From a virus (lineage: Duplodnaviria > Heunggongvirae > Uroviricota > Caudoviricetes): 45,523 bases of DNA. The notes beneath the pieces were generated by a model, which was not told the origin of the DNA, ran no database searches, and saw nothing but the letters and a program-made list of their open reading frames with translations. The stretch is from IMG/VR virus record IMGVR_UViG_3300042562_001169, one strand, 5' to 3'. Below, in pieces: positions 30,402 through 44,956 of the stretch. Made by a program: the position numbers and the translations under genes. Numbering within the stretch: the first letter of the stretch is position 1; each line of letters starts with the position of its first letter.

Positions 30402-30524
30402 ATGAAAAACACTAATAAACATATGAACGTCGTGATTTGGAACCAACAATTTAGTAATTGTTCGTATCCGCGTATCTCGCATACAAGTTCAGATGATTTA
30501 TCAAGTGATTTAATTTTATACTAA
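30402..30524 (+). CDS. Leader peptide 1 of tRNA block 1: MKNTNKHMNVVIWNQQFSNCSYPRISHTSSDDLSSDLILY
   Basis: 40-codon ORF between promoter and terminator; contains AGTTCAG (30486-92) complementary to the terminator 5' arm. Confidence 0.75.
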   Translation: MKNTNKHMNVVIWNQQFSNCSYPRISHTSSDDLSSDLILY

Positions 30525-30551
30525 AGATTAAACCAACAATATAAGATAAAG

Positions 30552-30583
30552 TCCTGAACTCAAAAAGTTCAGGATTTTTTTTT
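30552..30583 (+). terminator. Attenuator terminator upstream of tRNA block 1
   Basis: TCCTGAACT/AGTTCAGGA plus 9 T. Confidence 0.9.
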
Positions 30584-31352: not shown

Positions 31353-31355
31353 CTA

Positions 31356-31504: not shown

Positions 31505-31509
31505 TAATT

Positions 31510-31784: not shown

Positions 31785-31916
31785 CGAGGTTACCTTACAC
31801 CTCCTATATGGCACTCGGTCCGTTAAGCCGGGGAAGTGAGGTAAAAAAAAATGACTACTATTAAGGAATGATACGAGCCTGCAAAGTTCGAAAATAGTCA
31901 GGTGGTAGTCAAAATT

Positions 31917-31988
31917 GGACTTGTAGCTCAGAGGAAGAGCGGATGGTTGTTAATCATCGGGTCGGGATATCGTAATTCTCCAAGTCCG
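31917..31988 (+). tRNA. tRNA-Asn(GTT) copy 2 with atypical T-loop ATCGTAA
   Basis: GGACTTG/CAAGTCC, GATGG-TTGTTAA-TCATC. Confidence 0.8.
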
Positions 31989-32101
31989 CAAAACCTTAAA
32001 TGTGGTATCAGATACTGACAGCTCCTGCTTAAGAAGGGGTGATGGGTGTGAAAGCTGATTGAAAAGGGTACTTCTCAAACCCACATTGATAGGTGATATA
32101 T

Positions 32102-32175
32102 GGTGATTGTAGCTGAATTGGTAAAGCGTCTGATTGTGGTTCAGGAGATTGTGGGTTCGAGTCCCACCTTTCACA
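32102..32175 (+). tRNA. tRNA-His(GTG) with encoded G-1 opposite A73
   Basis: TCTGA-TTGTGGT-TCAGG; acceptor with two T.T mismatches. Confidence 0.85.
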
Positions 32176-32190
32176 CTTAAATTATGTGTT

Positions 32191-32448
32191 ATGGATGAAG
32201 ATGGAAAAATTGAAGAATTAGAGGGTCTAATTGTAGATTTAAGATTTGATTTAAAGAAATCCAAAGATAAAGAGTTGATTTACTTGGACATTTTATCCAA
32301 CATTGATAATTCGTTAAAAGTGTTGTTCAAGAGGGAACAAGAAAATGAGAGATTTAATCTTGGTGATGATGTTAATTACCGAGAATGTATTGAGAATCTA
32401 AAGTCGGCGTTGGACGAATATAAACGAGTTTATAAATTACGGTTATGA
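32191..32448 (+). CDS. Hypothetical protein (likely start 32191)
   Basis: MDEDGKIEELEG...; the upstream ORF extension lies inside tRNA-His. Confidence 0.7.
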   Translation: MDEDGKIEELEGLIVDLRFDLKKSKDKELIYLDILSNIDNSLKVLFKREQENERFNLGDDVNYRECIENLKSALDEYKRVYKLRL

Positions 32449-32498
32449 AAAAGGTATTGGATAATCTTTGAGGTCTGCTAAACAACAGACTCAAGATT

Positions 32499-32687
32499 AT
32501 GAGTGTAAACACAAACAGAATGAAACTGAACAACGCGACTTGTTCAAAAGATTACAGATTGATTTGGTTAAAGTTTGAATACTCCCCTTATTGGGATGAG
32601 GGTGTTTATTACAGAAAAGGACAATTTTCTCACAAATACAGAGAACATAAAACTTGGAAGTATAACCGAAAAACTCAATGGAAGTAA
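32499..32687 (+). CDS. Hypothetical basic protein
   Basis: 62 aa, WKYNRKTQWK end. Confidence 0.65.
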   Translation: MSVNTNRMKLNNATCSKDYRLIWLKFEYSPYWDEGVYYRKGQFSHKYREHKTWKYNRKTQWK

Positions 32688-32689
32688 AA

Positions 32690-32753
32690 TGTGTTGTTCC
32701 CGTGAGAGGGGGGTATGAAATACGAGGTAGGTTATATCATCCTACACAACACA
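32690..32753 (+). ncRNA. Four-way-junction spacer RNA
   Basis: TGTGTTGT/ACAACACA enclosing TCCC/GGGG, GTAT/ATAC and GTAGG/CCTAC. Confidence 0.4.
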
Positions 32754-32775
32754 GAGGAGTTCTTAACCTCAAAAT

Positions 32776-32867
32776 GGTCAGGTGGCGGAATTGGTAGACG
32801 CAAAGGAATGTCTAAGGTTGGTATCATTCATTCTGTCCAATTACAGGTTCGAGACCTGTCCTGACTA
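32776..32867 (+). tRNA. tRNA-like gene with Leu-type D-arm and a non-canonical 14-nt anticodon loop
   Basis: GGTCAGG/CCTGACT, ACAGG-TTCGAGA-CCTGT, GAATG/CATTC stem with loop TCTAAGGTTGGTAT. Confidence 0.6.
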
Positions 32868-32874
32868 CAAAATT

Positions 32875-32947
32875 GTCTCCATCGTTCAACTGGAAAGGAC
32901 TTATCTTTACGACAGATAGAATAGGGGTTCGAATCCTCTTGGGGACA
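32875..32947 (+). tRNA. tRNA-Arg(ACG)
   Basis: GTCTCCA/TGGGGAC, TATCT-TTACGAC-AGATA. Confidence 0.9.
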
Positions 32948-32949
32948 CA

Positions 32950-33041
32950 AAAGTAGAGACAACGAGGATGATGCGCAAATTCATTAATTAGGTTCGAATC
33001 CTAAGCCGGGGGTTTATCCCCCGGCATTGAGACTCTACTTT
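32950..33041 (+). ncRNA. tRNA-like element with a displaced T-arm
   Basis: AAAGTAGAG/CTCTACTTT enclosing TTAGG-TTCGAAT-CCTAA and an 8-bp GC hairpin. Confidence 0.45.
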
Positions 33042-33046
33042 CATTT

Positions 33047-33132
33047 GGAGAGTAAAACAATCAGGGTATTGTCACCGCCTGCTAAGCGAGTGGTTCGGTT
33101 AAATGGATGGATTTCGAGTATTCTGCTCTCCG
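33047..33132 (+). tRNA. tRNA-Ser(GCT)
   Basis: GGAGAGT/GCTCTCC, CTGCTAA loop, long variable arm, G73; weak T-stem. Confidence 0.8.
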
Positions 33133-33148
33133 CAGAAAATTAAAGATT

Positions 33149-33244
33149 ATGGAAGAAAAAGAGAAAGAAAAATTTTGGTATGAAGCAGGGTCTTTCATAA
33201 CTAAAAAAGGTATTAAAGTAACTCTTTATTTAGAGGTAAAATAG
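33149..33244 (+). CDS. 31-aa hypothetical peptide
   Basis: MEEKEKEKFWYEAGSFITKKGIKVTLYLEVK. Confidence 0.45.
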   Translation: MEEKEKEKFWYEAGSFITKKGIKVTLYLEVK

Positions 33245-33249
33245 ACATT

Positions 33250-33444
33250 ATGAAAACATTTGAAACAAAAGAATTCTTAAATGAATTAGATAAGATGGGG
33301 GTGGTTTATACAATTGATTCTAACCCGAGTCCTGAAAAAATTGAGAGATTAAAGAAAAGTATTGAAAAAAGAGATTTAAGAATTAAACAAATGGTGGAAG
33401 ATTATAATTCCGGTAAATTTGATGAAGTGATTAAATCGTTATAA
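33250..33444 (+). CDS. Hypothetical protein
   Basis: 64 aa ORF. Confidence 0.65.
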   Translation: MKTFETKEFLNELDKMGVVYTIDSNPSPEKIERLKKSIEKRDLRIKQMVEDYNSGKFDEVIKSL

Positions 33445-33446
33445 AA

Positions 33447-33559
33447 TAATTAGTTCCCCCGTTTGTTCCGTCAAGGGGTATAAAGAGACATCAATCAACG
33501 GAACCCCAAATGGAGTCCTTGCCTTAGTAGGATAAAGATGTTATAAACTCAACTAATTA
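33447..33559 (+). ncRNA. Pseudoknotted spacer RNA
   Basis: TAATTAGTT/AACTAATTA; CCCC/GGGG with loop GTTCCGT pairing to ACGGAAC; ACATC/GATGT; TCCT/AGGA. Confidence 0.5.
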
Positions 33560-33563
33560 AATT

Positions 33564-33636
33564 CTAGATGTGGGAAAGTTGGTAATCCGCTACACTTGGA
33601 CCGTAGAGACCGCTGGTTCGAGTCCAGCCATTTAGA
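33564..33636 (+). tRNA. tRNA-Pro(TGG) copy 1
   Basis: CTAGATG/CATTTAG, CTAC-A-CTTGGAC-C-GTAG. Confidence 0.85.
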
Positions 33637-33700
33637 CGAAAGGAAACTGTTACTAATTTATTGGACCTCATAGTGGGGGGAATCGTAGAATTAGAAAATT

Positions 33701-33774
33701 CGGGGTGTGGACTAAAGGCTAGTCGCCTGGTTTGGGACCAGGACATCGAGCAGATTCGATTTCTGCCACCCCGA
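33701..33774 (+). tRNA. tRNA-Pro(TGG) copy 2
   Basis: CGGGGTG/CACCCCG, CCTGG-TTTGGGA-CCAGG. Confidence 0.9.
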
Positions 33775-33840
33775 CAATTAATTAATATTATTTACTTTTT
33801 TTGAACTTATAGTATATTTATAATATAAATAAGATACATT

Positions 33841-34413
33841 ATGACTACGAGTTTGAAAGAAGATATATTAAAATTAAGGAAAGAAGGTAAAAATTATAAT
33901 GAGATTTGCGAAATATTAAATTGTTCTAAAGGGACTGTTTCATATCATTGTAATAATAATAGTGTAGGGGGTAACTATGTTAGTAATGTTAGAGAAAAGT
34001 TAACAGATGTTGAAATTGAAGAGTTAAACATATATTATAAAGACCATTCAATTGAGGAATGTATAATTAAATTTAATCTTGGCCGGTCAACAGTTATTAA
34101 ATACACGAAAAACAAATATGTTAAATTAAGTGTAGATGAATTAAGAGATAGGAATTACAATAAAGTTAAAACACATAGACAAAGGTTAAAAGAAAAATCT
34201 ATTAGTTATAAAGGTGGTTCGTGTGAAAAATGTGGATATAATAGATGTAATTCGGCGTTAGAATTCCATCATTTAGACCCTAATAAAAAAGATTTCGGGA
34301 TTGGAACATATAGTGTTTTATCTTGGGATAAAATAAAAGAAGAATTAGATAAATGTATTTTATTATGTGCGAATTGTCATAGAGAATTACATTACAATTT
34401 ACTCGGTCAGTAG
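33841..34413 (+). CDS. HTH-HNH homing endonuclease; 3' end overlaps tRNA-Ile
   Basis: HTH (NYNEICEILNCSKGTVSYH); CEKCG..LEFHHLDP..LLCANCHRELH. Confidence 0.9.
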   Translation: MTTSLKEDILKLRKEGKNYNEICEILNCSKGTVSYHCNNNSVGGNYVSNVREKLTDVEIEELNIYYKDHSIEECIIKFNLGRSTVIKYTKNKYVKLSVDELRDRNYNKVKTHRQRLKEKSISYKGGSCEKCGYNRCNSALEFHHLDPNKKDFGIGTYSVLSWDKIKEELDKCILLCANCHRELHYNLLGQ

Positions 34414-34476
34414 CTCAATCAGTAGAGCATTCGCCTGATACGCGAAAGGTAGTAGGAGCGTAGCCTACCTGACCGA
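34404..34476 (+). tRNA. tRNA-Ile(GAT) with atypical T-loop AGCGTAG
   Basis: CGGTCAG/CTGACCG, TTCGC-CTGATAC-GCGAA. Confidence 0.82.
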
Positions 34477-34558
34477 CAAATGTGGCTCACTGATTTTGAT
34501 TATTAAGCTCAAATTACTTATATTTTGAGCCAAATAATAGAGTAAAATGAGCCCAATC

Positions 34559-34629
34559 GCCCCCAAAGCTTTAAGGTGAAGCACGATACTTTTAATATCG
34601 GGAAGTTGGTTCGATACCACCTGGGGGTA
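34559..34629 (+). tRNA. tRNA-Lys(TTT)
   Basis: GCCCCCA/TGGGGGT, CGATA-CTTTTAA-TATCG. Confidence 0.88.
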
Positions 34630-34637
34630 CAAAAAAA

Positions 34638-34902
34638 ATGTTTAACTAATAAATCAAAAGTTGTGAGTAGTGTTACTTGGTCAGTATTTAGTGCTGAATA
34701 TTTTAGTGAAGTAAAAAAAGAATTAGTGTGGAGAAAACAAACTTTTCTTTATATGGGAGATTTATCCAACGTAGATATGACAACAGATTGGAGATTTAGT
34801 GATGTTGAAGGAAAAAGAAGAAAGTGTAAATTTTTAGGGTTAATAGATAATCCGGAATTTCCACTAAAAGGACCAATTAAAACATATAGAAATAATGAAT
34901 AA
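34638..34902 (+). pseudogene. Hypothetical gene with an out-of-frame ATG (possible 1-nt insertion, or a downstream GTG start)
   Basis: ATG 34638 reads M-F-N-stop, but the adjacent frame stays open to 34902. Confidence 0.35.
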
Positions 34903-35401
34903 GTACGGAAAAACATTGGTTTTGGATTCAAGTTATATGCCAAGGTCTATCATAAACACTGAAAGGGCTTTTGTAATAACTTATAAAGGTAATGCAAGTG
35001 TAATTGCCGAACATCCGGAATCATTTAATCTAATCAATCCTGAATTAGATATTAAGAAACCTTCAATCATAAGGGTTTATAAATACGTGAATCAACCAAT
35101 TCATAAAGTTCCATTAAGTAGAGAGAATGTTTATCGTAGAGATAACTTTGAGTGTGTTTACTGTGGGTGTGATAATCGTAAGACATTGACATTAGACCAC
35201 GTAATACCCCAATCTAAAGGGGGTAAAGACGCGTGGGACAACTTGGTTACCGCTTGTAGAAGATGTAATGGTGAGAAGTCCAATTTGACTTTGGAAGAGT
35301 ATGGTAAAGAAATCCCCCAACCAAGACGACCACACTATTTAATGATGATGAAACAAGTTCATTATGTTCCAAAAGAATGGGAAGATTATTTGTTTATTTA
35401 A
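34895..35401 (+). CDS. HNH endonuclease (bacterial-type)
   Basis: SRENVYRRDNFECVYCG...LTLDHVIPQSKGG..WDNLVTACRRCN. Confidence 0.9.
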   Translation: MNKYGKTLVLDSSYMPRSIINTERAFVITYKGNASVIAEHPESFNLINPELDIKKPSIIRVYKYVNQPIHKVPLSRENVYRRDNFECVYCGCDNRKTLTLDHVIPQSKGGKDAWDNLVTACRRCNGEKSNLTLEEYGKEIPQPRRPHYLMMMKQVHYVPKEWEDYLFI

Positions 35402-35419
35402 AAAATAGTTATATCTTTG
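35389..35419 (+). promoter_or_regulatory. Bacteroidota-type promoter inside tRNA block 1
   Basis: TTTG 35389-92, 19 nt, TATCTTTG 35412-19. Confidence 0.7.
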
Positions 35420-35435
35420 TCAAAAATTAATAGAT

Positions 35436-35597
35436 ATGACAATGGAACAAGAAATTTTAGGTTTTACAAATTGGTTATACACTAACAATTGGAAACTAAT
35501 TGGTGATGGTATGTGTTTGAATCTTGAAACAAAGGAAATTGGTTATATTAACGAACTAATGGTCGAATATGAACTAATTGCCGAATATAAAGAATAG
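35436..35597 (+). CDS. Hypothetical protein (53 aa)
   Basis: MTMEQEILGFTNW...; downstream of the promoter. Confidence 0.6.
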   Translation: MTMEQEILGFTNWLYTNNWKLIGDGMCLNLETKEIGYINELMVEYELIAEYKE

Positions 35598-35602
35598 AAA
35601 TT

Positions 35603-35845
35603 ATGATACCAAAAAATGAAATGGTTGAAGGTTGGTATAAGGGTTTCTGTAGAAACAATTATATGGCTTTTTGGGACGGAGAGAAGTTCCAATACATCCG
35701 ATATAAGTTCGGGTATCGTTTGGATACCATAGAACATTTTGAAGATGTTAAAGAACAAAGATTAGATGGGTTTGTCCCGGTTGAGAGAATTGAAAGATTA
35801 ACTCCGGAGGAACAATGGAATGAAAAAAATGAAATAGGATATTAA
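35603..35845 (+). CDS. Hypothetical protein
   Basis: 80 aa ORF. Confidence 0.7.
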   Translation: MIPKNEMVEGWYKGFCRNNYMAFWDGEKFQYIRYKFGYRLDTIEHFEDVKEQRLDGFVPVERIERLTPEEQWNEKNEIGY

Positions 35846-35846
35846 G

Positions 35847-36446
35847 ATGATAGATAATATAAAAGAAATCAAAGAATTACTGAATTTCTCGGACAAAAAC
35901 GATTTCTATATGTTATACGTTTTCAAGAGAAAAAAGGACCAACCTGAGGGTGAGAGAGATAATCACCAATCGGTTAGAACAATCAAAACATATTGTATTG
36001 ACAGCATTGAACATCTTGATAAGAGATACGATGAAATCAAACAATTATGTGAGATGTTCAAGGCAAGAGCTTACATTCACGTTCAGAAACAAAACCATAT
36101 GGATGTTTCTTTGGAAATGATGATGTCGTTAGCTGAGAGAATTAAAAATGGTGTGAAAAACCAAAAGGGTTTATTTGATTCCGTTGTGGGTCAAATCAAA
36201 ACACAAGAAAAAAGATGGATTGTAGATATTGATACAACTGACCCTGATTTTTTATATGAAGTTGCGGATTTTATTAAAGACCTTAAACCAGTTGGTTTTA
36301 AAGTTGAAAAAGTAATACCTACCAAAAATGGTAGACATTTAATCACATCTCGATTCGATGTTAAAACATTTAGTGAAAAATACCCGGATGTTGATATTCA
36401 AAAGAAAAATCCAACATTATTGTATTATCCAAATAGTTTAGATTAA
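35847..36446 (+). CDS. Hypothetical protein with AEP (primase-polymerase)-like motifs
   Basis: WIVDID and PTKNGRHLI. Confidence 0.55.
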   Translation: MIDNIKEIKELLNFSDKNDFYMLYVFKRKKDQPEGERDNHQSVRTIKTYCIDSIEHLDKRYDEIKQLCEMFKARAYIHVQKQNHMDVSLEMMMSLAERIKNGVKNQKGLFDSVVGQIKTQEKRWIVDIDTTDPDFLYEVADFIKDLKPVGFKVEKVIPTKNGRHLITSRFDVKTFSEKYPDVDIQKKNPTLLYYPNSLD

Positions 36447-36625
36447 ACAACACATAGAAAAACGGACAATAGAGGCGTAAATTGGTTAGTCCACGCCCCG
36501 ATATAGCATTAGCCTATATTGTGACGACTCTAAACACCCCAAGAAGTGTTATGTTTTGTTGAGTAAGGTAAGAGAAGGTTGAAAGTCCAAAACATACTTA
36601 TCCCAACTTGGTGGATGTGTTGTTT
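36445..36625 (+). ncRNA. Repeated structured RNA motif, copy 1
   Basis: 11-bp closing stem; shares CAAGAAGTGTTATGTTT(T)GTTGAGTAAG with 39891-40077. Confidence 0.65.
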
Positions 36626-36634
36626 TTATTAAAT

Positions 36635-36704
36635 GGTCTTGTTGGTCGTGGCGACCGGTTAGTCTGCAAAACTAACAGAGTGAGTTCGATTCTCACCGAG
36701 ACCT
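36635..36704 (+). tRNA. tRNA-Cys(GCA)
   Basis: GGTCTTG/CGAGACC, TTAGT-CTGCAAA-ACTAA, U73. Confidence 0.9.
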
Positions 36705-36708
36705 CAAA

Positions 36709-36860
36709 TAACATAATTGTTTAACCACGAAAATGGGCTTGAACAACCGAATGGAAGACGCGTTTCTTACTAGGGAGTAAAATAGAAAATTAGATTCGGA
36801 GGCATCCGGGTTGTGTGAAAAAGTAGGGAGCTCCCGGCAGGGACTAAAATAATTGTGTTA
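36709..36860 (+). ncRNA. Structured spacer RNA
   Basis: TAACATAATT/AATTGTGTTA closing; TTTCT..AGAAA, TACT/AGTA, TCGGA/TCCGG. Confidence 0.4.
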
Positions 36861-36866
36861 TTATAT

Positions 36867-36938
36867 ACGTCATTGGTGAAATGGTTATCATTTTAGTCTC
36901 CAAAACTAAAGTTTCAGATTCGAGTTCTGAATGGCGTG
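36867..36938 (+). tRNA. tRNA-Trp(CCA)
   Basis: ACGTCAT/ATGGCGT, TTAGT-CTCCAAA-ACTAA, G73. Confidence 0.9.
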
Positions 36939-37010
36939 CAAGAAGACGGAGAGTGAGTCAAGGGTAATTCCGTTATGGTTATCCCTCGAGGGTCTCTCCT
37001 GAAGAAATAT

Positions 37011-37084
37011 GGATTTTGAAGTACAATTGGACGTGCGACCGGTGTAAGACCGGGAGGATATAGGTTCGAATCCTATCATTATCC
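37011..37084 (+). tRNA. Atypical tRNA-like gene (loop TGTAAGA, G33; nominal TAA)
   Basis: GTAC/GTGC D-stem, CCGG/CCGG anticodon stem, ATAGG-TTCGAAT-CCTAT; weak acceptor. Confidence 0.5.
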
Positions 37085-37088
37085 CAAG

Positions 37089-37236
37089 AAACAGACCTAT
37101 AACTTACGTCAGTGGTAGTGTAGGGGTGAGGTTCGGAGTAATCAACCAAACCAAGAAACCGCCGAGGGTAAACACGAGTATGATGCTTGTCTAGTCCCCT
37201 AAGACTGAAATATCGGAGAATCCTCATTGTCTGTTT
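37089..37236 (+). ncRNA. Structured spacer RNA with pseudoknot potential
   Basis: AAACAGAC/GTCTGTTT; CAGT/ACTG, AGGGG/CCCCT, TGAGG/CCTCA, ACGAGTA/TGCTTGT. Confidence 0.4.
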
Positions 37237-37246
37237 TTTTAAAATA

Positions 37247-37443
37247 AAAAGTTTAACAACCGGGGTGTCCATACTCTAAAAAATTAATGGACTAGCGTGT
37301 TGATAGGGGTGACCTCCCAATAGTAGCACCGTAGTAATACGGTAAAGGATAGATAAGGACTAGTACGCCGGTGACGAACACGACGAATTCCGGAATTCCC
37401 ATTGTAGCCCGCTACGACCCGAGGGCGGGGTTGTTAAACTTTT
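37247..37443 (+). ncRNA. About 200-nt structured RNA closed by a perfect 15-bp stem
   Basis: AAAAGTTTAACAACC/GGTTGTTAAACTTTT; GTCCA/TGGAC, CGTGTT/AACACG, ACCGTA-GTAA-TACGGT. Confidence 0.6.
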
Positions 37444-37461
37444 TTCTTTATATTTATCAAT

Positions 37462-37806
37462 ATGAAAAACTTTAAATTTTTAATGGATAAACTCAAGGAC
37501 TATAATTTAGATTCTGAGGATTATGCGGTTTTTGGTTCCGCACCATTAGTAATCACCGGAATGATTAATGATGTTAATGACTTAGACGTAATTATACGTC
37601 CATCAAAATGGGAATTTAATGATGAAGGTGAATATAGAACCAAAGATATTGAATTTTTCAATAATTGGCCCGAATACGATATTGATGACTTAATTGATAA
37701 TCACTCATTCGTTTATAATGGGGTTCGATTCATAAATCCAAAGAAAGTTATTGAATATAAAAAATCCCTTAAAAGGAATAAAGATAAAAATATTTGGGAT
37801 AATTAA
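37462..37806 (+). CDS. Minimal nucleotidyltransferase-like protein (Pol-beta superfamily)
   Basis: YAVFGS...NDLDVII. Confidence 0.65.
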   Translation: MKNFKFLMDKLKDYNLDSEDYAVFGSAPLVITGMINDVNDLDVIIRPSKWEFNDEGEYRTKDIEFFNNWPEYDIDDLIDNHSFVYNGVRFINPKKVIEYKKSLKRNKDKNIWDN

Positions 37807-37878
37807 AATAAATCTTACCAATAATTGACTTTTTACAAAACTAACGTATATTTATTAGAAATTACAATAACACAACAA

Positions 37879-37953
37879 ATGCAAACTTTAAACATATTAC
37901 TTACGATAGCGGGAACTGAGGGTAGAGATACAACTTGGAAGCAGATGGTATGA
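37879..37953 (+). CDS. Leader peptide 2 of tRNA block 2: MQTLNILLTIAGTEGRDTTWKQMV
   Basis: 24-codon ORF; AGATGG (37943-48) complementary to the terminator 5' arm; TTG-N19-TATATTTA promoter-like element at 37825-37854. Confidence 0.75.
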   Translation: MQTLNILLTIAGTEGRDTTWKQMV

Positions 37954-37982
37954 TATATATTTAAGTAAAAAAAATATTCAAA

Positions 37983-38014
37983 AATCCATCTTCAAAAAAG
38001 GTGGATTTTTTTTT
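37983..38014 (+). terminator. Attenuator terminator upstream of tRNA block 2
   Basis: AATCCATCTT/AAGGTGGATT plus T-run. Confidence 0.9.
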
Positions 38015-38023
38015 GTCTTAAAG

Positions 38024-38054
38024 TTTGGTATATTGAAATAAAAGATTATCTTTG
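38024..38054 (+). promoter_or_regulatory. Bacteroidota-type promoter
   Basis: TTTG 38024-27, 19 nt, TATCTTTG 38047-54. Confidence 0.75.
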
Positions 38055-38075
38055 TAAGGAATTAAAAAACAAGAT

Positions 38076-38186
38076 ATGGACGATACAAGAGAAGAGTTGG
38101 TTATGGATTACTCACCAATATTAGGAGTAACCTACGGATTAAAAAATGTTTTGGTTGAGGATGATTCAACAGAAAAAGAAGAATAA
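38076..38186 (+). CDS. 36-aa hypothetical peptide
   Basis: MDDTREELVMDYSPILG...; lies between two near-identical promoters. Confidence 0.5.
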   Translation: MDDTREELVMDYSPILGVTYGLKNVLVEDDSTEKEE

Positions 38187-38202
38187 AAAAAAGATTAAAA
38201 AG

Positions 38203-38233
38203 TTTGGTATAATGAAATAAAGTATTATCTTTG
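38203..38233 (+). promoter_or_regulatory. Bacteroidota-type promoter upstream of tRNA-Glu (near-copy of 38024)
   Basis: TTTG 38203-06, 19 nt, TATCTTTG 38226-33. Confidence 0.75.
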
Positions 38234-38280
38234 TACCATCAAAATGAAACAAGTTAATTGACATATTGGTAATATAAAAC

Positions 38281-38352
38281 GGCCCTATCATCTATCGGTT
38301 AGGATATTTGGTTTTCATCCAAAAAAGTCGGGTTCGACTCCCGGTGGGGCTA
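38281..38352 (+). tRNA. tRNA-Glu(TTC)
   Basis: GGCCCTA/TGGGGCT, TTTGG-TTTTCAT-CCAAA. Confidence 0.92.
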
Positions 38353-38417
38353 CAAGGGTTATGAACAACGTGTCCCCTTAATTTCACAATGTTGACAATT
38401 CGGAAAGACGAGTAAAT

Positions 38418-38487
38418 GGGTCAGATGACAACGGCAGTTCAACTGATTTGCAATCAGATTGTTTGGGTTCGACTCCCACTGTATCCA
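38418..38487 (+). tRNA. tRNA-Ala(TGC), irregular acceptor stem
   Basis: CTGA-TTTGCAA-TCAG; G3.U70 wobble retained. Confidence 0.65.
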
Positions 38488-38587
38488 CAAAAAACAGAAA
38501 GACAGAATACGGGAAGTCACTACCCGGGAAACACGGTTCTTTCTCCTTCAATTGTTATAGGATAGTCACCTTTGAATTGAAAATTTT

Positions 38588-38659
38588 GGTCTATTTGTCT
38601 AACGGCTAGGATGCTACCCTGTCACGGTAGAGGCGAGAGTTCGATTCTCTCATAGACCG
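38588..38659 (+). tRNA. tRNA-Asp(GTC)
   Basis: GGTCTAT/ATAGACC, CTACC-CTGTCAC-GGTAG, G73. Confidence 0.93.
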
Positions 38660-38708
38660 CAAAACTCAAGATTAATTACCTTGAGAATGGAAGGTTCGAA
38701 ACTTCCGA

Positions 38709-38817
38709 TTGATTATAGTGTAATGGTGCACACCATCCCCCCAAAACAGGGTTCGAGTCCCTGGAACGTGGGCTTCTCAGGGGAAGGGAGATTAAGGTTC
38801 GAATCCTTACTAATCAG
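38709..38817 (+). tRNA. tRNA-like gene with a large insertion in the anticodon loop containing a second T-arm
   Basis: TTGATTA/TAATCAG, GTGT/GCAC, TAAGG-TTCGAAT-CCTTA; insert CAGGG-TTCGAGT-CCCTG. Confidence 0.55.
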
Positions 38818-38822
38818 CAAAT

Positions 38823-38892
38823 TGCGTTAAAGTGTAAAGGTTGCATCTAAGTCTCATAAGCTTGGGGGGTGGTTCGAGTCCACGTTACGCTA
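38823..38892 (+). tRNA. tRNA(CAT), Met-type
   Basis: TAAGT-CTCATAA-GCTTG; acceptor with mismatches. Confidence 0.75.
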
Positions 38893-38906
38893 CTAAGAAT
38901 AAACAT

Positions 38907-38979
38907 CGTGGGATAGAGCAGTTGGCAGCTCGTGTGGCTCATAACCATAAGGTCGGAGGTTCGAGTCCTCCTCCCGCTA
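38907..38979 (+). tRNA. tRNA-fMet(CAT) (initiator-like)
   Basis: C1 mismatched with T72, GAGC/GCTC D-stem, TGTGG-CTCATAA-CCATA. Confidence 0.85.
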
Positions 38980-39001
38980 CTAATTTAATAACTAAATCCG
39001 T

Positions 39002-39175
39002 ATGGCTACAGTAGCAAAAAGGTCAAGACAACAAAGAGTTCTTGAAATGTTGGAGAAACAATTAAAAAATGGTTTAAAAACCGAAAAAGGAACACGAGAT
39101 GTGAAGGTTCCATTAACTGATTCTGATAAGAAGAGAATCGTTAAAGAGATTGAGAATCTCAAAACAAAAGTATAA
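39002..39175 (+). CDS. Basic hypothetical protein (57 aa)
   Basis: MATVAKRSRQQRVLEMLEKQLK... Confidence 0.65.
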   Translation: MATVAKRSRQQRVLEMLEKQLKNGLKTEKGTRDVKVPLTDSDKKRIVKEIENLKTKV

Positions 39176-39224
39176 ACTTATAAGTTTAAAATTTAAATTT
39201 ATTTTCAAGGTATAAGTTTAAAAT

Positions 39225-39298
39225 GCGGGTATGGTGTTTAACGGCTAGCACGTGGGCCTTCCAAGTCTGAAGTTTCGGTTCGAATCCGAATATCCGCT
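39225..39298 (+). tRNA. tRNA-Gly(TCC)
   Basis: GCGGGTA/TATCCGC, TGGGC-CTTCCAA-GTCTG, U73. Confidence 0.92.
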
Positions 39299-39300
39299 CA

Positions 39301-39728
39301 AAAATAGTGAAAAAGTAATTATATGAAGTAACCTTCGGGGACACTGCCGGAACCCTTTAACACATAGGTAGGTGAAAAGTATGATGAAAGACAACGGCGC
39401 ACCGGTCAACCATCTGGGAGTAATTACCCATAACGGATGTGGAGATGAAGTCACAGCTCCTTAGGACCGCAATGGTGAAAAATTTGGTCGAACTATTTTA
39501 ATTTTTATATTCTGTTTGACGTTAGACAGTATGGTGCCCTGGATATCTCGGAAACACAAGTGGGGAAGGAAGTTACTCACCACATACAGAAAACATAGAT
39601 TCGTATGTCTAACGAAAGGTTAAGTGAAAAGGTCGGCATTCGTTCCAACGTTGCGACAGACTATAATAGGGGAGTGAAGGGGTTTGGGCCTTCACACTTA
39701 ATTACCAATCTATGTCGGTAACAGAATA
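39301..39728 (+). ncRNA. Large non-coding structured region (two domains of about 200 nt)
   Basis: AAAATAGT/ACTATTTT and TATTCTGTT/AACAGAATA closing stems; long-range GTTAGACA/TGTCTAAC and CATAGATT/AATCTATG. Confidence 0.6.
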
Positions 39729-39732
39729 AATT

Positions 39733-39804
39733 GGCTCCATCGTTCAACGGATAGGACATTTCTCTTCTAAGGAAATTATCGGGGTTCGAATCCCTGTGGA
39801 GTCA
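39733..39804 (+). tRNA. tRNA-Arg(TCT)
   Basis: GGCTCCA/TGGAGTC, TTTCT-CTTCTAA-GGAAA. Confidence 0.92.
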
Positions 39805-39812
39805 CAACAATT

Positions 39813-39885
39813 GCCTTGGTGGTGGAACGGTAGACACGGAAGTCTTAGGAACTTCATATTGAGGGTTCGATTCCCTCCTGAGGTA
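39813..39885 (+). tRNA. tRNA-Leu(TAG) with short variable loop
   Basis: GCCTTGG/CTGAGGT, GAAGT-CTTAGGA-ACTTC, variable region ATATT. Confidence 0.85.
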
Positions 39886-39890
39886 CAAAA

Positions 39891-40077
39891 TTTACGCATA
39901 GAAAGACAAACAAAATACAAGCCACAACAGTTAATGCACTACAATGTATTACAACACTATCAAGAAGTGTTATGTTTGTTGAGTAAGATAAAGAAAAACC
40001 TGGACGTGAGTTAGGTATGGATTAAGGTGAGAGTCGTAACCTCCATAGAATTATCCCCATCTTGAGGGATGTGTAAA
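39891..40077 (+). ncRNA. Repeated structured RNA motif, copy 2
   Basis: TTTACGCAT/ATGTGTAAA closing; core block shared with 36445-36625. Confidence 0.65.
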
Positions 40078-40081
40078 AATA

Positions 40082-40235
40082 TACATTATCATAACTCGGT
40101 GTGATACACCGCCAACTACCTCCTTAAACAACGTGGGAACTGCGGTTCTCCCAATGTGGCCGAAGTGATGATGTAAAAAGAAACAGAGAAAAATCTGGAC
40201 AGCGAAAGCAGGATAGACCTTGGACAGTTTCTTTT
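40082..40235 (+). ncRNA. Two further stem-closed spacer elements
   Basis: TACATTATCAT/GTGATGATGTA (40082-40175); AAAAGAAAC/GTTTCTTTT (40176-40235). Confidence 0.4.
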
Positions 40236-40288
40236 AGTAGTTTAAGAGACAGAGCTGACTTCTACTTTAAAAAAATGCTCTGCGACAG

Positions 40289-40361
40289 GCTGGTAAAACA
40301 TAAATGGTGATGTGCTTGTTTTGTACACAAGATAATAGGGTTCGATTCCTTATACCAGCTC
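40289..40361 (+). tRNA. tRNA-Thr(TGT)
   Basis: GCTGGTA/TACCAGC, CTTGT-TTTGTAC-ACAAG. Confidence 0.9.
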
Positions 40362-40426
40362 AATTTTTTTTATTGTTCGAATCTGACTTTTGACTCTTTT
40401 TGTGATATTTATAATAAAGAGAAGTT

Positions 40427-41140
40427 ATGAAAAAATGGACAGAAGAAGAATTTAATTTATCAGTGAATTACATAAATAATGGGTTGACTTATGATGAAAT
40501 TGCGGAATTCTTAAATAGAACTAAAAAATCGGTTAGAATAAAGTTAAATAAATTTGGTGTTTATGTTAAACCAAAAATTTATACTATTGAAAAAAAATGT
40601 ATTCATTGTAATAATGATTTTATATCGTTTATTAGTGAAGAAAGAAAATATTGTTCTCAGTCGTGTTCCGCAAAAGAAAATAATAAATTATATGTTAAAC
40701 GACAAAAAACCGAATTTAATGTAGAAGTTAAAAATCTGAATAAACAAATTAAAAATTGTTTGAATTGTGGGTGTGAAATTAATGATTCAACAAAAACATA
40801 TTGTAATCAAATTTGTTTTCACGAAAATCGTAAAAAAAATATTTTTAATTTAATCAATAATAATGATACTACATTAAATCCAAGACAATATAAAAAATAT
40901 CTTATTGAAAAATATGGTAATAAATGTATGGAATGTGGATGGGGTGAAAAAAACCCAAAAAGTAATACAATACCAATTGAGTTAGAACATATCGACGGAA
41001 ATGGGTCTAACAACACATTAAGTAATTTAAAATTATTATGTCCTAATTGTCATTCTTTAACTCCAACATATAAGGGGGCGAATAAAGGTAATGGAAGACA
41101 TAATAGAAGAGAAAGATACCAAGATGGTAAAAGTTATTAA
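40427..41140 (+). CDS. HTH-Zn finger-HNH homing endonuclease
   Basis: LTYDEIAEFLNRT..SV; CxxC..YCSxxC repeats; IELEHIDGN..NN.LSNL.LLCPNCH. Confidence 0.9.
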   Translation: MKKWTEEEFNLSVNYINNGLTYDEIAEFLNRTKKSVRIKLNKFGVYVKPKIYTIEKKCIHCNNDFISFISEERKYCSQSCSAKENNKLYVKRQKTEFNVEVKNLNKQIKNCLNCGCEINDSTKTYCNQICFHENRKKNIFNLINNNDTTLNPRQYKKYLIEKYGNKCMECGWGEKNPKSNTIPIELEHIDGNGSNNTLSNLKLLCPNCHSLTPTYKGANKGNGRHNRRERYQDGKSY

Positions 41141-41143
41141 AAT

Positions 41144-41223
41144 AGTTAGGTGGCGGAATTGGATAGACGCGGCCCCGTTGAGGGGTTTAACCGGAATTAC
41201 AGGTTCGAGTCCTGTCCTGACTA
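41144..41223 (+). tRNA. tRNA-like gene paralogous to 32776, non-canonical anticodon arm
   Basis: AGTTAGG/CCTGACT, GCCCC-GTTGA-GGGGT (5-nt loop), ACAGG-TTCGAGT-CCTGT. Confidence 0.6.
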
Positions 41224-41227
41224 CAAT

Positions 41228-41430
41228 TGAGATAGAGATACTCAATAGATTTGGCATCGTTTCTTAAACAAAGATGTAGCTGACGCCTCAAACGGTTTTA
41301 CAGAGGGGGTCTTAGGGTTAATAGGGAGCCTACCAACTCACCTCCTAGTAATGGTTGACTTTTTAAGTGGTAAGACACGTAGGGTTTTTGAATAGGAAAA
41401 ACTAAGAATATCTACACCAAAATAATCTCA
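41228..41430 (+). ncRNA. About 200-nt structured spacer RNA
   Basis: TGAGAT/ATCTCA, TTTGG/CCAAA, GTCTTA/TAAGAC, TAGG(G)AG/CTCCTA, GTTTTT/AAAAAC. Confidence 0.45.
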
Positions 41431-41443
41431 TTGGTGGAAAAAT

Positions 41444-41516
41444 GTCCTCGTGGTGAAACGGTAAACACAACGGTTTTAAGCATCGTAAGCTGTAGGTTCG
41501 ACTCCTACCGGGGATA
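41444..41516 (+). tRNA. tRNA-Leu(TAA) with short variable loop
   Basis: GTCCTCG/CGGGGAT, ACGGT-TTTAAGC-ATCGT, variable region AAGCT. Confidence 0.85.
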
Positions 41517-41582
41517 CTAATATTTAATATTATGAAAAACAACCAACCCAACTCCACTTAGTTTTAGCTATTAGCTAAAATT

Positions 41583-41813
41583 ATGACTCAGAAATTGAGA
41601 ATTTGGAGAGTAGTACCCGTTAGTAACGGTGTTCAGGCTCCCACTTTTTTCGTAGAAACTACGGAAGAAGGACGTGAGAAGGCAGAGGAATCTGCGATTA
41701 AACAAGCACGAATTAAATCGGGCTTAGGAAAGTTCAAACAATGGAACTTTAGATTGGAGAAACTCTCTGTGAGGGTTGATAAATTTGGTAGGTATGTGAA
41801 ACACCACCAATAA
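41583..41813 (+). CDS. Hypothetical protein
   Basis: 76 aa ORF. Confidence 0.65.
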   Translation: MTQKLRIWRVVPVSNGVQAPTFFVETTEEGREKAEESAIKQARIKSGLGKFKQWNFRLEKLSVRVDKFGRYVKHHQ

Positions 41814-41852
41814 GTTGACATATGTTTGTGGGTTCATTAAAAACCCATAATT

Positions 41853-41924
41853 GGTCTCGTAGCTCAAAGGTGGAGCAGTTCGCTCATAACGAAAAGGATG
41901 GGATATCGTGATTCCCCGAGACCA
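41853..41924 (+). tRNA. tRNA(CAT), probable Ile2 (lysidine type), atypical T-loop ATCGTGA
   Basis: GGTCTCG/CGAGACC fully paired, TTCG-CTCATAA-CGAA; the Ile2 call is an inference. Confidence 0.75.
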
Positions 41925-42036
41925 CAGCGGATATTTGAGTGTAAGCAAGTACAATATCTATCGTTAGACCCTTACAGGTGATGAACGGTGGTCTTAGGGT
42001 CATTCCTAAGTGTAGATACCAGTTAACTCTACATAG

Positions 42037-42064
42037 AACCTTCAAGGAAACTTGGGGGTTTTTT
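42037..42064 (+). terminator. Terminator closing the tRNA array
   Basis: CAAG-GAAA-CTTG core with extended stem and T-run. Confidence 0.7.
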
Positions 42065-42204
42065 ATTTACAATAAAATAAATCATCCTTATATTTATAAC
42101 TGAAACCTTGTTGCTGAGGTTCTCGTGTCCACAGAGGCATTTGAGTTGGAATTGATACCAACGAAGAGAAGTTCAATAAACATAAAAAATAAAATAAGGA
42201 AATT

Positions 42205-43068
42205 ATGTATTACCAAACAAAAACAGGTACGCCTTGTGCGTATATCTCAAAAGACAGAAAACGTCTTAAACAATTTGGACAAACTGTCTATCTAAACAAC
42301 GGGGACGAATTCCAATTGGAATTATTCAACCCATCATCAACCACAGTATTAGCGAAAATCAAACTTGACGGAAGTTATATCTCCGGAGGAGGAATTGTTC
42401 TTAAACCGGGACAAAGAGTATTTCTTGAGAGATACCTTGACGACGCTTGTAAATTTAAGTTTGAAACTTATGAGGTTGATGGAACATCAAATGAGGTATT
42501 GGATGCCATCGCCGGAAATGGGGATGTTGTTATCGACTTCTTTGATGAATATAAACAACCGGTGTGGAACAACCCAATAACTTATGTTGGTGGTTCATTT
42601 GGTGGACCAACTCATACATATTATAACAATACAGGTACATTTTCAGGTGGATATGCTCATACAACATTAAGTAATAATGTATCTTTTACGTCATCAAGTA
42701 ATACTGCGGGAGTTAATTTTAATACTACCTCAATAAGTAATACTTTTGCAGGACCAAACATTAGAAGTAAAAGAGGTATATTAAAATCTAAAGGTAATTC
42801 TCGTAGTGAGGTTACTATGGATGGTATGTTATCTATGGACTCAGTAGAAACCGGTAGAGTTGAAAAAGGTGGTTCATCTGACCAATCTTTTAAAACGGTA
42901 GATAAAACTTTTAATCATTATACTTGTTCTACATCGATATGGAAGATATTACCGGTGTCACAACAGGTTTTTGAAAAACAGGATTTAAAAGTGTATTGTG
43001 TTAACTGTGGAAAAAAAAGAAAAAAAGATTCCGATAAATTTTGTTCTTCTTGTGGGGACAAATTCTAA
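42205..43068 (+). CDS. Hypothetical protein: beta-rich N-domain, low-complexity linker, C-terminal zinc ribbon
   Basis: EFQLELFNP...LAKIKLDG; YCVNCG...KFCSSCG. Confidence 0.85.
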   Translation: MYYQTKTGTPCAYISKDRKRLKQFGQTVYLNNGDEFQLELFNPSSTTVLAKIKLDGSYISGGGIVLKPGQRVFLERYLDDACKFKFETYEVDGTSNEVLDAIAGNGDVVIDFFDEYKQPVWNNPITYVGGSFGGPTHTYYNNTGTFSGGYAHTTLSNNVSFTSSSNTAGVNFNTTSISNTFAGPNIRSKRGILKSKGNSRSEVTMDGMLSMDSVETGRVEKGGSSDQSFKTVDKTFNHYTCSTSIWKILPVSQQVFEKQDLKVYCVNCGKKRKKDSDKFCSSCGDKF

Positions 43069-43096
43069 AAAATAAACAAATAACAAGGTTTCATAA

Positions 43097-43126
43097 AAAA
43101 ACCCCTTCTTTTCAGAGGGGGTTTTT
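43097..43126. terminator. Bidirectional terminator
   Basis: AAAAACCCCT/GGGGGTTTTT. Confidence 0.8.
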
Positions 43127-43141
43127 GATTTTATATTAATT

Positions 43142-44956
43142 TTATGGTGTTGTTGGTGTTGGGGTTGGTGTTTCAGTATTAGTAGGTGTTGGAGTTTGAG
43201 TTGGAGTCTCGGTAGGTGTTGGTGTTTGCGTCGGAGTCTCAGTTGGTGTTGGGGTTGGGGTTGGGGTTGGACATCCATTAGGGTCGGATGATGTAATTTG
43301 TCCAAGTCCTCCCGTAATGTTATACCAGGCAGTTCCGTTAGAATAGTAACCATCAGGAGCAGGAGTTATTAATGATGTGTCAATGTATATATATTCATTA
43401 AGATTCGGTCCAATTCCACCTGCAACAGGTGCGTAAACATTAATTGGTGAACCAACATTAGTACAAGCATCAATTGATGTTGCTCCGGTTCCTAAACTAT
43501 ATGTGTAATAACCAAATGTTGCTGTTGGTGTCATTGAAGGTGTTGGAGTTATTGTCGTTGTAGGTGTTGGTGTGATAGTAGGTGTTGGTGTTGGAATTAT
43601 TGAACATAATGTAAATGGTGATATAGCAAATCCTGTGTTATCTAATTCAACTTCTTGTCCTAAATACGCGTAATATCCTGACATATCAATAGTTGATGGT
43701 CCATATACATCATTAAAGAATTCAGTATTCATATCGAAAGTACTATTTTCTCCATAAATAACTATTGGTGTACCGGTAGAACATACTGAATAAATACTAG
43801 TGTCAAATAATACATTAAATAAAGTTCTTGTTACAACGGTAGGTGTTGGTGTTTGAGTTGGAGTTTCAGTTTGAGTTGGTGTTTGAGTTGGTGTTGGTGT
43901 TTGAGTTGGAGTTTCAGTTTGAGTTGGAGTTGGTGTTTGCGTCGGAGTCTCGGTTGGTGTTGATGTTTGAGTTGGTGTTGGTGTCGGAATATTGTATGTG
44001 AAAATATTTGACGTTGTAGGTCCACCATTAATACATTCTTGAGTTATTCTAAAATAAATAATATTTGTTGGGTCTATACCAATATCAAATGGTTCCGGTG
44101 TTGAACACTGACCAACTATTGGAACCCAAGTTATAAGGTCTAAAGAGTATGATAAGAATGCTTGAACACAATTAGGTTCTAAATTTACAAAGTTATATTC
44201 CCAAGTTGTGCCAGCACTATATGTTACGCTAAGTAATTCTATTCCACATAATGGGAATGTTGGTGTTGGAGTCAATGTCATCGTATTTGTTGGTGTCATT
44301 GTAGGTGTTGGAGTTGGTGTTGGGATATTATTTTGAATCTCATTTGAGGTTGTTGGTCCACCAACAATTGATTCTTGTGTTATTCTAAAGATAACACTGT
44401 CGTATAATTCTATACCCACATCCCAAGTTGTTGGAGACGTAACACATCCAATGATATTTGTTACCCAATTAAAACCACCATCAAGCGAGTATTCTAAGTA
44501 TAAATTAGAACAATTACTATCAATGTTTATAAAAGTGTATTCCCAATTATATGCTGATGTATTAACAACACTTGATAATATTATACCATTTAATGGGAAT
44601 GTTGGAGTTGGAGTTGGAGTCTCAGTTTGCGTCGGAGTCTGTGTTGGAGTCTCAGTTTGCGTCGGAGTCTGTGTTGGAGTCATTGTAGGTGTTTGAGTTG
44701 GTGTTTGACTAGGTGTTTGAGACGGAAGTATTGGTGAGTGAGTAGGTGGAAAATCCAATACCTCAATAATATCAACACAAGAAGATGTCCCTTGATTATT
44801 TAAAAATCTTAATGTTCCATCAAAAGCCCAAACATTTTTAATTTGACCGGGTGCTAATGAAACTTGGTATTGCCACATACTATCTGACAATGTTTTGTAA
44901 TTGAAAAATATTGTGATTTGACAAATATTTTTTAAAATGTATTTTTTTCCTACCAT
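43142..44956 (-). CDS. Thr-Pro (mucin-like) repeat protein with a duplicated beta domain; putative virion fibre or decoration
   Basis: Five TPT(P/Q)T tracts separating globular modules; two homologous FPL.GI...FRITQE...GGPTTSN domains. Confidence 0.8.
   Translation of the reverse strand: MVGKKYILKNICQITIFFNYKTLSDSMWQYQVSLAPGQIKNVWAFDGTLRFLNNQGTSSCVDIIEVLDFPPTHSPILPSQTPSQTPTQTPTMTPTQTPTQTETPTQTPTQTETPTPTPTFPLNGIILSSVVNTSAYNWEYTFINIDSNCSNLYLEYSLDGGFNWVTNIIGCVTSPTTWDVGIELYDSVIFRITQESIVGGPTTSNEIQNNIPTPTPTPTMTPTNTMTLTPTPTFPLCGIELLSVTYSAGTTWEYNFVNLEPNCVQAFLSYSLDLITWVPIVGQCSTPEPFDIGIDPTNIIYFRITQECINGGPTTSNIFTYNIPTPTPTQTSTPTETPTQTPTPTQTETPTQTPTPTQTPTQTETPTQTPTPTVVTRTLFNVLFDTSIYSVCSTGTPIVIYGENSTFDMNTEFFNDVYGPSTIDMSGYYAYLGQEVELDNTGFAISPFTLCSIIPTPTPTITPTPTTTITPTPSMTPTATFGYYTYSLGTGATSIDACTNVGSPINVYAPVAGGIGPNLNEYIYIDTSLITPAPDGYYSNGTAWYNITGGLGQITSSDPNGCPTPTPTPTPTETPTQTPTPTETPTQTPTPTNTETPTPTPTTP

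Follow-up and report, generated by a model that had tools for sequence, protein, structure and literature searches.

The subject of this study is leader 2, a small transcription unit ahead of a block of tRNA genes in a 45,523-nt stretch of viral DNA (IMG/VR record IMGVR_UViG_3300042562_001169), which is referred to here, at its full length, as the window. The window is phage-like, has a G+C content of ~30-38% and belongs to a giant lake phage of Bacteroidota. Lake-water metagenomes contain the same DNA; the relatives, which are uncultured, are IMG/VR contigs of jumbo phages with lengths of 280-322 kb. Among deposited phages no close relative of the window was found, the sole match being that of tRNA-Glu. 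The tRNA region lies at 30.7-41.9 kb, where ARAGORN called 24 tRNAs and Rfam added several weaker ones. The tRNA genes form two blocks, each headed by a short leader open reading frame (ORF) and a terminator (Table 1). The leader-2 unit sits between a 114-codon ORF and tRNA-Glu, and an A-rich leader separates its promoter from its ORF.

Both elements of the leader-2 promoter are kept in relatives, while the spacer between them and the upstream DNA have diverged. The pattern TTTG-N19-TAnnTTTG has 13 matches in the window, compared with 3.6 expected, and the Flavobacterium promoter consensus, including its -7 box, is of the TTG-N19-TAnnTTT(G/A) type (PMC9723704). A sigma-70 reading of the site (TTGACT-16-TATATT) was rejected, as such sites were no more frequent than in shuffled sequences and the site fits the Bacteroidota pattern. 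Pfam and PHROGs gave no match for leader 1, leader 2 or the 36-codon ORF downstream, and an Rfam scan of 29500-43500 (E<=1) gave no match to a leader, riboswitch or T-box family. A sub-threshold match of Rfam Thr_leader on the leader-1 terminator scored 28 bits against a cut-off of 55 bits.

Codon content of the leaders

A sequence-only reading of the window had claimed that codons 6-19 of leader ORF 2 are all of block-2 type, that both Ile codons are ATA and that the Arg codon is AGA. These claims were borne out, exactly as listed, and the codon observation is confirmed. The further claim, that this run and the start Met together cover all types of tRNA in block 2, holds except for Gln, which is supplied by codons 2 and 22. 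The start of the leader had been placed at 37825; this position is the TTG of the promoter, in frame with the ORF, and the ORF itself starts at the ATG at 37879.

The codon match is far beyond chance. Leader 2 was compared with 200,000 random 24-codon pieces taken from 34 real ORFs of the window. Runs of at least 14 block-2 codons had P=0.002 among these segments, coverage of all 11 block-2 specificities had P=0.0009, and at least 20 cognate codons out of 24 had P=0.0003. Run and full coverage occurred jointly in none of the 200,000. Leader 1 is matched to the complementary set, with a 23-codon run and coverage of each of 15 specificities, and neither was seen in 200,000 segments. In addition, the peptides were held fixed and all 646,646 possible 12/10 splits of the 22 tRNA species were enumerated. 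The total match of both leaders to the real split had P=3.3e-4 (0.03% of partitions were as good), a leader-2 run of at least 14 had P=4e-5, and the coverage by each leader of every species of its own block had P=1.1e-4 (0.01% of partitions).

The choice among synonymous codons is also divided between the leaders. Arg is encoded by CGT in leader 1 (tRNA ACG) and by AGA in leader 2 (tRNA TCT), and Ile by ATT or ATC in leader 1 and by ATA in leader 2. The AGA codon says little alone because AGA is the common Arg codon here, with AGR making up 0.80 of the Arg codons. The joint split of Arg and Ile codons had P=0.0046.

Table 1. Positions of leader 2, its parts and the features around it in the window
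Feature	Position	Strand	Basis or remark
Leader-2 promoter, Bacteroidota sigma-A type: TTG (37825-27), 19 nt, TATATTTA (37847-54)	37825..37854	+	sequence
Leader ORF 2, 24 codons + TGA, MQTLNILLTIAGTEGRDTTWKQMV	37879..37953	+	ATG 37879, TGA 37951-37953
Sampler run, codons 6-19 (ILLTIAGTEGRDTT), all block-2 type	37894..37935	+	codon reading
Hairpin within ORF (CUGAG...CUUGG), candidate pause hairpin	37916..37938	+	fold, conservation
Segment 2 (GCAGATGG, core AGATGG at 37943-48), putative antiterminator 5' half	37941..37948	+	resembles terminator 3' arm
Spacer from stop codon to terminator, 30 nt	37954..37983	+	lineage sequences and folds
Intrinsic terminator: segment 3 ATCCATCTT (37984-92), segment 4 AAGGTGGAT (37998-38006), T-run T9 (38006-38014)	37984..38014	+	stem + T9
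Consensus sigma-A-type promoter right behind terminator	38024..38054	+	repeat family D5, consensus match
Acidic ORF, 36 codons, between both downstream promoters	38076..38186	+	present, longer or absent in relatives
Second promoter copy, 92% identical to the 38024-54 copy	38203..38233	+	consensus match
Motif TTGACATATTGGTAA, 9 nt ahead of tRNA-Glu	38258..38272	+	motif also before first tRNA of block 1, 30693-30707
tRNA block 2: Glu(TTC), Ala(TGC)-like, Asp(GTC), CAT-like, CAT (initiator type), Gly(TCC), Arg(TCT), Leu(TAG), Thr(TGT), odd TTG element, Leu(TAA), CAT	38281..41925	+	ARAGORN, Rfam
CAT tRNA, candidate tRNA-Ile2	41853..41925	+	elongator-type acceptor stem G1-C72, unusual T-loop
Leader 1 (40 codons; ORF 30402-30524) and terminator, ahead of block 1	30402..30583	+	sister unit for comparison

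Conservation across lineages and tRNA blocks

Six lineages of leader 2 were obtained from scans with degenerate DNA patterns and from unbiased BLAST of whole related contigs. The peptides are MQTLNILLTIAGTEGRDTTWKQMV in lineage A (that of the window), MKNLNISLTIAATEGRDTTWMLMV in lineage B, MKHNLYMDLTTGAEGRNPRMEMV in lineage C, MKYNLYMDLTIATEGRNPRMEMI in lineage C2, MQTLNTLLLTIGAEGRDTT[RW][ST]EMV in lineage D and MKTTHIILIGGTDRTEATTPMEMV in lineage E, the most distant. A 281-kb relative found through a neighbouring gene (G001) has few tRNAs and is without a leader homologue, and Flavobacterium phage immuto, with four tRNAs, has too few for a test. Conservation of the upstream ORF frame had been named in the sequence-only reading as a check on its proposal. 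All six lineages keep the frame open over 23-24 codons at a nucleotide identity of 69-88%, while 1-4 stops interrupt the other two frames, so this check did not refute the proposal.

These data bear on the possibility that the unit is a small non-coding RNA in which the open frame is fortuitous. In lineage A the whole transcript, including its untranslated parts, is almost invariant while the flanks diverge, and conservation there is at the nucleotide level and extends to most synonymous sites, which speaks for this reading. The comparison between lineages speaks against it. There, the ATG, the stop and a length of 23-24 codons persist at a nucleotide identity of 69-74% with stops in the other frames, length differences are whole codons, and synonymous changes are seen (GCG/GCA, ACA/ACG, GGC/GGA/GGT, TTA/CTA). 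Apart from the terminator, conserved structure is limited to a short hairpin, and with the terminator left out the RNA folds no better than shuffled sequences do (z=-0.06). We regard a non-coding RNA as highly improbable.

The peptide sequence itself is conserved in an unusual manner. The sampler run of lineage E (IILIGGTDRTEATT) has 13 of 14 residues in common with that of lineage A when compared as a set and only 4 of 14 when compared in place. No real 14-mer of the window proteins reached a shared set of 13, and among random peptides composed of block-2 residues only the probability was P=0.0018. In leader 1, the changes within the run (V11S, N14K/S, H27N) all stay within the block-1 set, including V11S, which needs two or three base changes, and the tail past the run varies freely in sequence and length. 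By our own tally, ~14 of the 16 replacements within the runs of the two leaders leave the codon cognate (P ~0.007). From these comparisons, selection appears to target what is sampled and not the protein sequence.

The same comparisons bear on a second alternative, in which leader 2 is an independent small gene for a microprotein with its own promoter and terminator, the match to block 2 is coincidental and the terminator insulates the tRNA promoters. The unit is indeed self-contained (promoter, ORF and terminator, with new promoters behind it), small ORFs are plentiful in phage tRNA regions, and some replacements break the codon match. Coincidence, however, has to account for a joint run and coverage seen in 0 of 200,000 segments, for partition probabilities between 1e-4 and 3e-4 and for a leader 1 that behaves alike with the complementary set. 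In addition, the scrambled order, kept composition and free tails are unlike those of a folded or binding peptide, and there was no PHROG or Pfam family match. A microprotein with a fortuitous match is, in our judgement, decidedly unlikely.

In 12 contigs the tRNA species are divided between two blocks in the same way, with the order inside the blocks shuffled. In two of these relatives (G005 and G006) block 2 precedes leader 1 and block 1, and each leader is still directly upstream of its own cohort. The content of the leaders follows the moves of tRNAs between blocks in the case of Tyr, Leu and the CAT/ATA pair. For example, tRNA-Tyr is in block 2 only in lineage C, Tyr is found in leader 2 only there, and leader 1 of that lineage has its Tyr codon outside the run. 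In lineage E the Leu tRNAs lie outside block 2, and leader 2 has 1 Leu codon vs 4. Lineage C is missing the block-1 CAT tRNA, and its leader 1 is without an internal Met. One contig (G002) has a single block-2 CAT tRNA and no ATA codon in its leader; in the remaining contigs ATA occurs at least once, mostly together with two or more CAT tRNAs.

The sequence-only reading had also proposed that one block-2 CAT tRNA, with that at 41853 as best candidate, is tRNA-Ile2, the lysidine-bearing tRNA with anticodon CAT. An Ile2 tRNA is likely to be present in block 2, for three reasons. First, the CAT tRNA at 38907-38980 has initiator features, namely an unpaired C1 and A11:U24 (our own reading of the sequence). 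Secondly, block 2 of G006 ends in a CAT tRNA, the positional counterpart of that at 41853, and this tRNA has a full-length identity of 82.7% with a CAT tRNA that is carried on P1-like plasmids and annotated in RefSeq as tRNA-Ile. Third, CAT tRNAs and ATA codons co-vary, as noted above. The elongator body of the 41853 tRNA and the resemblance of its counterpart favour the proposal, while the assignment to 41853 in particular is indirect; a search with this tRNA gave no match in E. coli. Judged from these sequence features, its identity as tRNA-Ile2 is plausible.

Several other observations were made on the tRNA genes. The tRNA with a GTT anticodon at 31917-31988, which ARAGORN missed (Rfam, 45 bits), is 70% identical to the CAT tRNA at 41853-41925, and both have an unusual T-arm, GGGATATCGT(A/G)ATTC, that replaces the usual GGTTCGA. 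Block 2 of the window looks decayed in places (38419-38487, 38662-38895), with a mispaired Ala(TGC) element and a weak CAT-like element, both at 27.7 bits. ARAGORN found no tRNA-Ala in block 2 of the window. The Ala(TGC) element (38419-38487) falls just below the Rfam cut-off of 29 bits and its acceptor stem is poorly paired; relatives have a normal tRNA-Ala at this position, and the window element is a decayed copy. Several isolated T-arm-like hairpins lie between tRNA-Asp and the initiator-type tRNA, where relatives have intact genes. Two paralogous tRNA-like elements, one in each block (32776-32867 and 41144-41224), are 97% identical over their 3' 32 nt, and the anticodon loop of each is abnormal; the second is called Gln(TTG) by ARAGORN and has G33 and a long extra arm. 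In G006 (locus L112, 300-12400) and G005 (locus L111), two Leu tRNAs lie upstream on the opposite strand, and G006 has an extra Gly(GCC) tRNA, the Gly codons of its leader 2 being GGC and GGG. Many tRNAs of G002 (loci L039/L040), among them those for Val, Cys, Met, Tyr, Thr and Arg, have lengths of 85-94 nt, and the 114-146 nt covered by some Rfam matches there point to insertions or introns.

Among the tRNA genes of the window lie three ORFs that match HNH endonucleases (33841-34413, 34895-35401 and 40427-41140), one clearly and two under the Pfam cut-off. Such mobile genes could help account for the shuffled gene order in relatives. The segment at 37090-37445, between a Leu(TAA)-like tRNA and the 114-codon ORF, is ORF-free and G+C-rich and had no Rfam match. 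One RNA-library contig links 37445 straight to 37810, which indicates that some relatives are without the 114-codon ORF. Outside the tRNA region, the window encodes a full-length Hsp70/DnaK homologue (6715-8583; Pfam E=1e-254).

The terminator, segment 2 and the downstream promoters

The terminator was paired in 189 of the 189 cells compared (21 sequences), and two of its pairs changed on both sides, from UA to CG. Segment 2, inside the ORF, resembles the terminator 3' arm and reads GCAGATGG in the window and GGAGATGG in lineages C-E. The pairing proposed earlier between AGATGG (37943-48) and CCATCT (37986-91) joins exact complements, and it is kept, or extended to 8 bp, in other lineages. Segments 2 and 3 can pair over 5-6 bp in lineages A and B and over 8 bp in C, D and E. 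They were paired in 92% of cells, compared with 35-70% when the partner was slid. For transcripts cut just after segment 3, the minimum-energy fold contained the segment 2:3 helix and an inner stem of lineage-specific sequence in five of the six lineages, and the helix was shifted in C2. This inner stem of the predicted antiterminator hairpin is formed in the spacer, which is 26-33 nt long across lineages and divergent in sequence. The predicted hairpin has a folding energy of -8 to -15 kcal/mol in the four lineages where it was isolated, compared with -10 to -16 for the terminator.

In all lineages the stop codon is in the same place. It lies 3 nt past the end of segment 2 (37948), where a ribosome that terminates would mask this segment. 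One that is halted at codons 6-16 would leave segment 2 unmasked, judging from the size of the ribosome footprint. The hairpin within the ORF is kept in lineages A-D and could, on the predicted folds, be a pause site; in lineage C it has 8 bp, and its 3' half consists of the non-cognate codons N-P-R. The sequence-only reading had described leader 1 as having the same design, and this proved correct: a promoter, a sampler ORF, a copy of the terminator 3' arm within the ORF and a terminator are found in both units. In leader 1 the copy is (A/G)GTTCAG(G), which matches the 3' arm of its own terminator in both diverged lineages.

Promoters are found again after the terminator of leader 2. In the window, host-type promoters at 38024-54 and 38203-33, with the 36-codon ORF, lie between the terminator and tRNA-Glu, and a promoter is present behind the terminator in every leader-2 homologue for which downstream sequence was read. 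Block 2 could thus be transcribed without read-through of the terminator, and read-through here can only add to transcription from the two downstream promoters. An attenuator may matter at a stage of infection when these promoters are off. In leader 1 of lineages C and E, the first tRNA follows the terminator at a distance of 28-45 nt, in which no sigma-A-type promoter was read, and block 1 would then need read-through there. Contigs from the RNA libraries X19, X21 and X23 bridge the leader-2 terminator, and that from X20 ends at 38014; being contigs only, they show the presence of the region but neither transcript ends nor expression levels, and carry-over of DNA is possible.

The motif TTGA[AC]ATATTGGTAA, which in the window lies ~9 nt ahead of the first tRNA of either block, occurs in exact or near-exact copies at the two tRNA block starts of two complete relatives (309 and 322 kb), and it lies directly behind the leader-1 terminator in lineages C and E. 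A general promoter was rejected as its function, as it marks only the two tRNA block starts in the complete relatives. It may serve as a signal for processing or as a promoter of a special kind.

Interpretation and relation to known attenuators

Each part of the earlier interpretation that lends itself to sequence comparison was upheld. Taken together, the data lead us to think that leader 2 is probably a ribosome-sensed transcription attenuator of the trpL type, for which the signal would be the supply of the tRNAs encoded downstream. With somewhat greater assurance, the comparisons suggest that the leader senses tRNA supply at all, whether its output is attenuation or something different; this we hold to be quite probable. 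In the proposed mechanism, the host-type promoter would start a transcript of ~155 nt, and a ribosome would translate the 24-codon ORF, in which the sampler run would sample about one codon for each block-2 tRNA. With smooth decoding, the ribosome at the stop codon would cover segment 2, segments 3 and 4 would form the terminator and transcription would end at 38014. If any sampled tRNA were short, the ribosome would stall upstream and segment 2 would be free to pair with segment 3. This pairing would block the terminator, and RNA polymerase would read into block 2. The sequences themselves show the codon match, the conserved frame, the terminator, the potential for alternative pairing and the place of the stop codon, while stalling, switching and the effect on tRNA output are inferred.

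Several points weigh against this reading. First, the pairing of the antiterminator is modest in the lineage of the window, at 5-6 bp, codon 22 at its edge is hypervariable (CAG/TCG/ACG/GAG/GTG) without compensation, and in a strict covariation test no antiterminator pair changed on both sides. Secondly, the codon match is imperfect: it is broken by D17N (L037), by L7S in lineage B and by N-P-R in lineage C, leader 1 of lineage C has TCN codons where no Ser(TGA) tRNA was found, and G008, G009 and G014 keep W and K although tRNA-Trp was not detectable in any of the three, nor tRNA-Lys in G008. Enrichment of the leaders for rare codons was not significant (P=0.15 and P=0.08, the latter for leader 2). 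Third, one codon per tRNA is a weak signal in comparison with the codon runs of his and trp leaders, and host tRNAs read the same sampled codons. Lastly, the main reservation lies in the promoters behind the terminator described above, and the leader-2 terminator could simply insulate.

The promoters also bear on an alternative in which the leader samples block-2 tRNAs and its output lies elsewhere, either in an RNA or peptide that acts in trans or in ribosome transit that alters the processing or stability of the precursor. The promoters past the terminator make control of block 2 in cis partly redundant, and the codon match and co-evolution with the blocks are independent of the output mechanism. 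The near-invariance of the whole lineage A transcript between diverging flanks would suit such an output, and trans-acting products of attenuators have a reported precedent in Sinorhizobium (PMC6614838 and PMC7968998). An output elsewhere does not explain why segment 2 copies the terminator 3' arm in both leaders and all lineages, or why the stop codon is placed where a terminating ribosome would mask segment 2. In addition, the leaders stay attached to their own blocks after rearrangement, which points to action in cis. We therefore consider an output of this kind unlikely and retain attenuation in cis as the preferred reading.

Leader-peptide attenuators are known from trpL, hisL, leuL and pheL, from the multivalent thrL and ilvL, and from pheM ahead of pheST. 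Leader 2 resembles the attenuators of amino-acid operons in three respects: a short leader ORF rich in diagnostic codons is followed by an intrinsic terminator, a predicted alternative hairpin would use the terminator 5' arm and be blocked by a ribosome terminating at the stop codon, and the signal would be how fast the ribosome passes given codons, which reflects the supply of charged tRNA. It differs in that the genes past the terminator are tRNAs and not enzymes, in that the leaders have about one codon each for 10-15 tRNAs and not runs of one or two kinds, in that two phage-encoded units divide the tRNA set of the phage between them, and in having promoters behind the terminator in the window. 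T-box riboswitches, too, respond to the state of tRNAs by forming either a terminator or an antiterminator. T-boxes, however, bind uncharged tRNA directly, without translation, and control aminoacyl-tRNA synthetase and amino-acid genes.

For rnTrpL/peTrpL of Sinorhizobium, a terminated leader RNA and its peptide are reported to be able to have functions of their own (PMC6614838, PMC7968998). By analogy, functions of this type could explain the near-invariance of the whole leader-2 transcript, although the phage leader shares no sequence relationship with rnTrpL/peTrpL and no trans target of it was identified. Signs of leader-peptide attenuation have been reported upstream of amino-acid biosynthesis operons in Flavobacteria (PMC9723704). 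A search of full-text literature found no description of a codon-matched leader that attenuates phage tRNA genes. The class of mechanism is that of the classical leader-peptide attenuator; what differs is the target (tRNA genes), the logic of one codon per tRNA across a cohort and the phage setting.

To our knowledge, the regulation by phages of their own tRNA genes is largely unknown. We incline, by a small measure, to a wider view in which each tRNA cohort is defined by a sampler leader with about one codon for each of its tRNAs, leader and cohort co-evolve in that the codon of a tRNA follows it to another block, and the whole may act as a homeostat that raises tRNA transcription when any sampled codon slows, for example upon depletion or cleavage of host tRNAs. 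The leaders would then be feedback sensors that are legible from sequence and predict which tRNAs each of them reports on. They offer a reason for the stable two-block split of the tRNA set, and their codons offer sequence clues to the identity of ambiguous CAT tRNAs. If this is true, leader-peptide attenuation is not confined to amino-acid metabolism and reaches the translation machinery itself; ribosome-mediated attenuation would gain a new class of target and a new, multi-specific logic that many large phages would share, and the expression of phage tRNAs would be linked to the depletion of host tRNAs in infection or defence.

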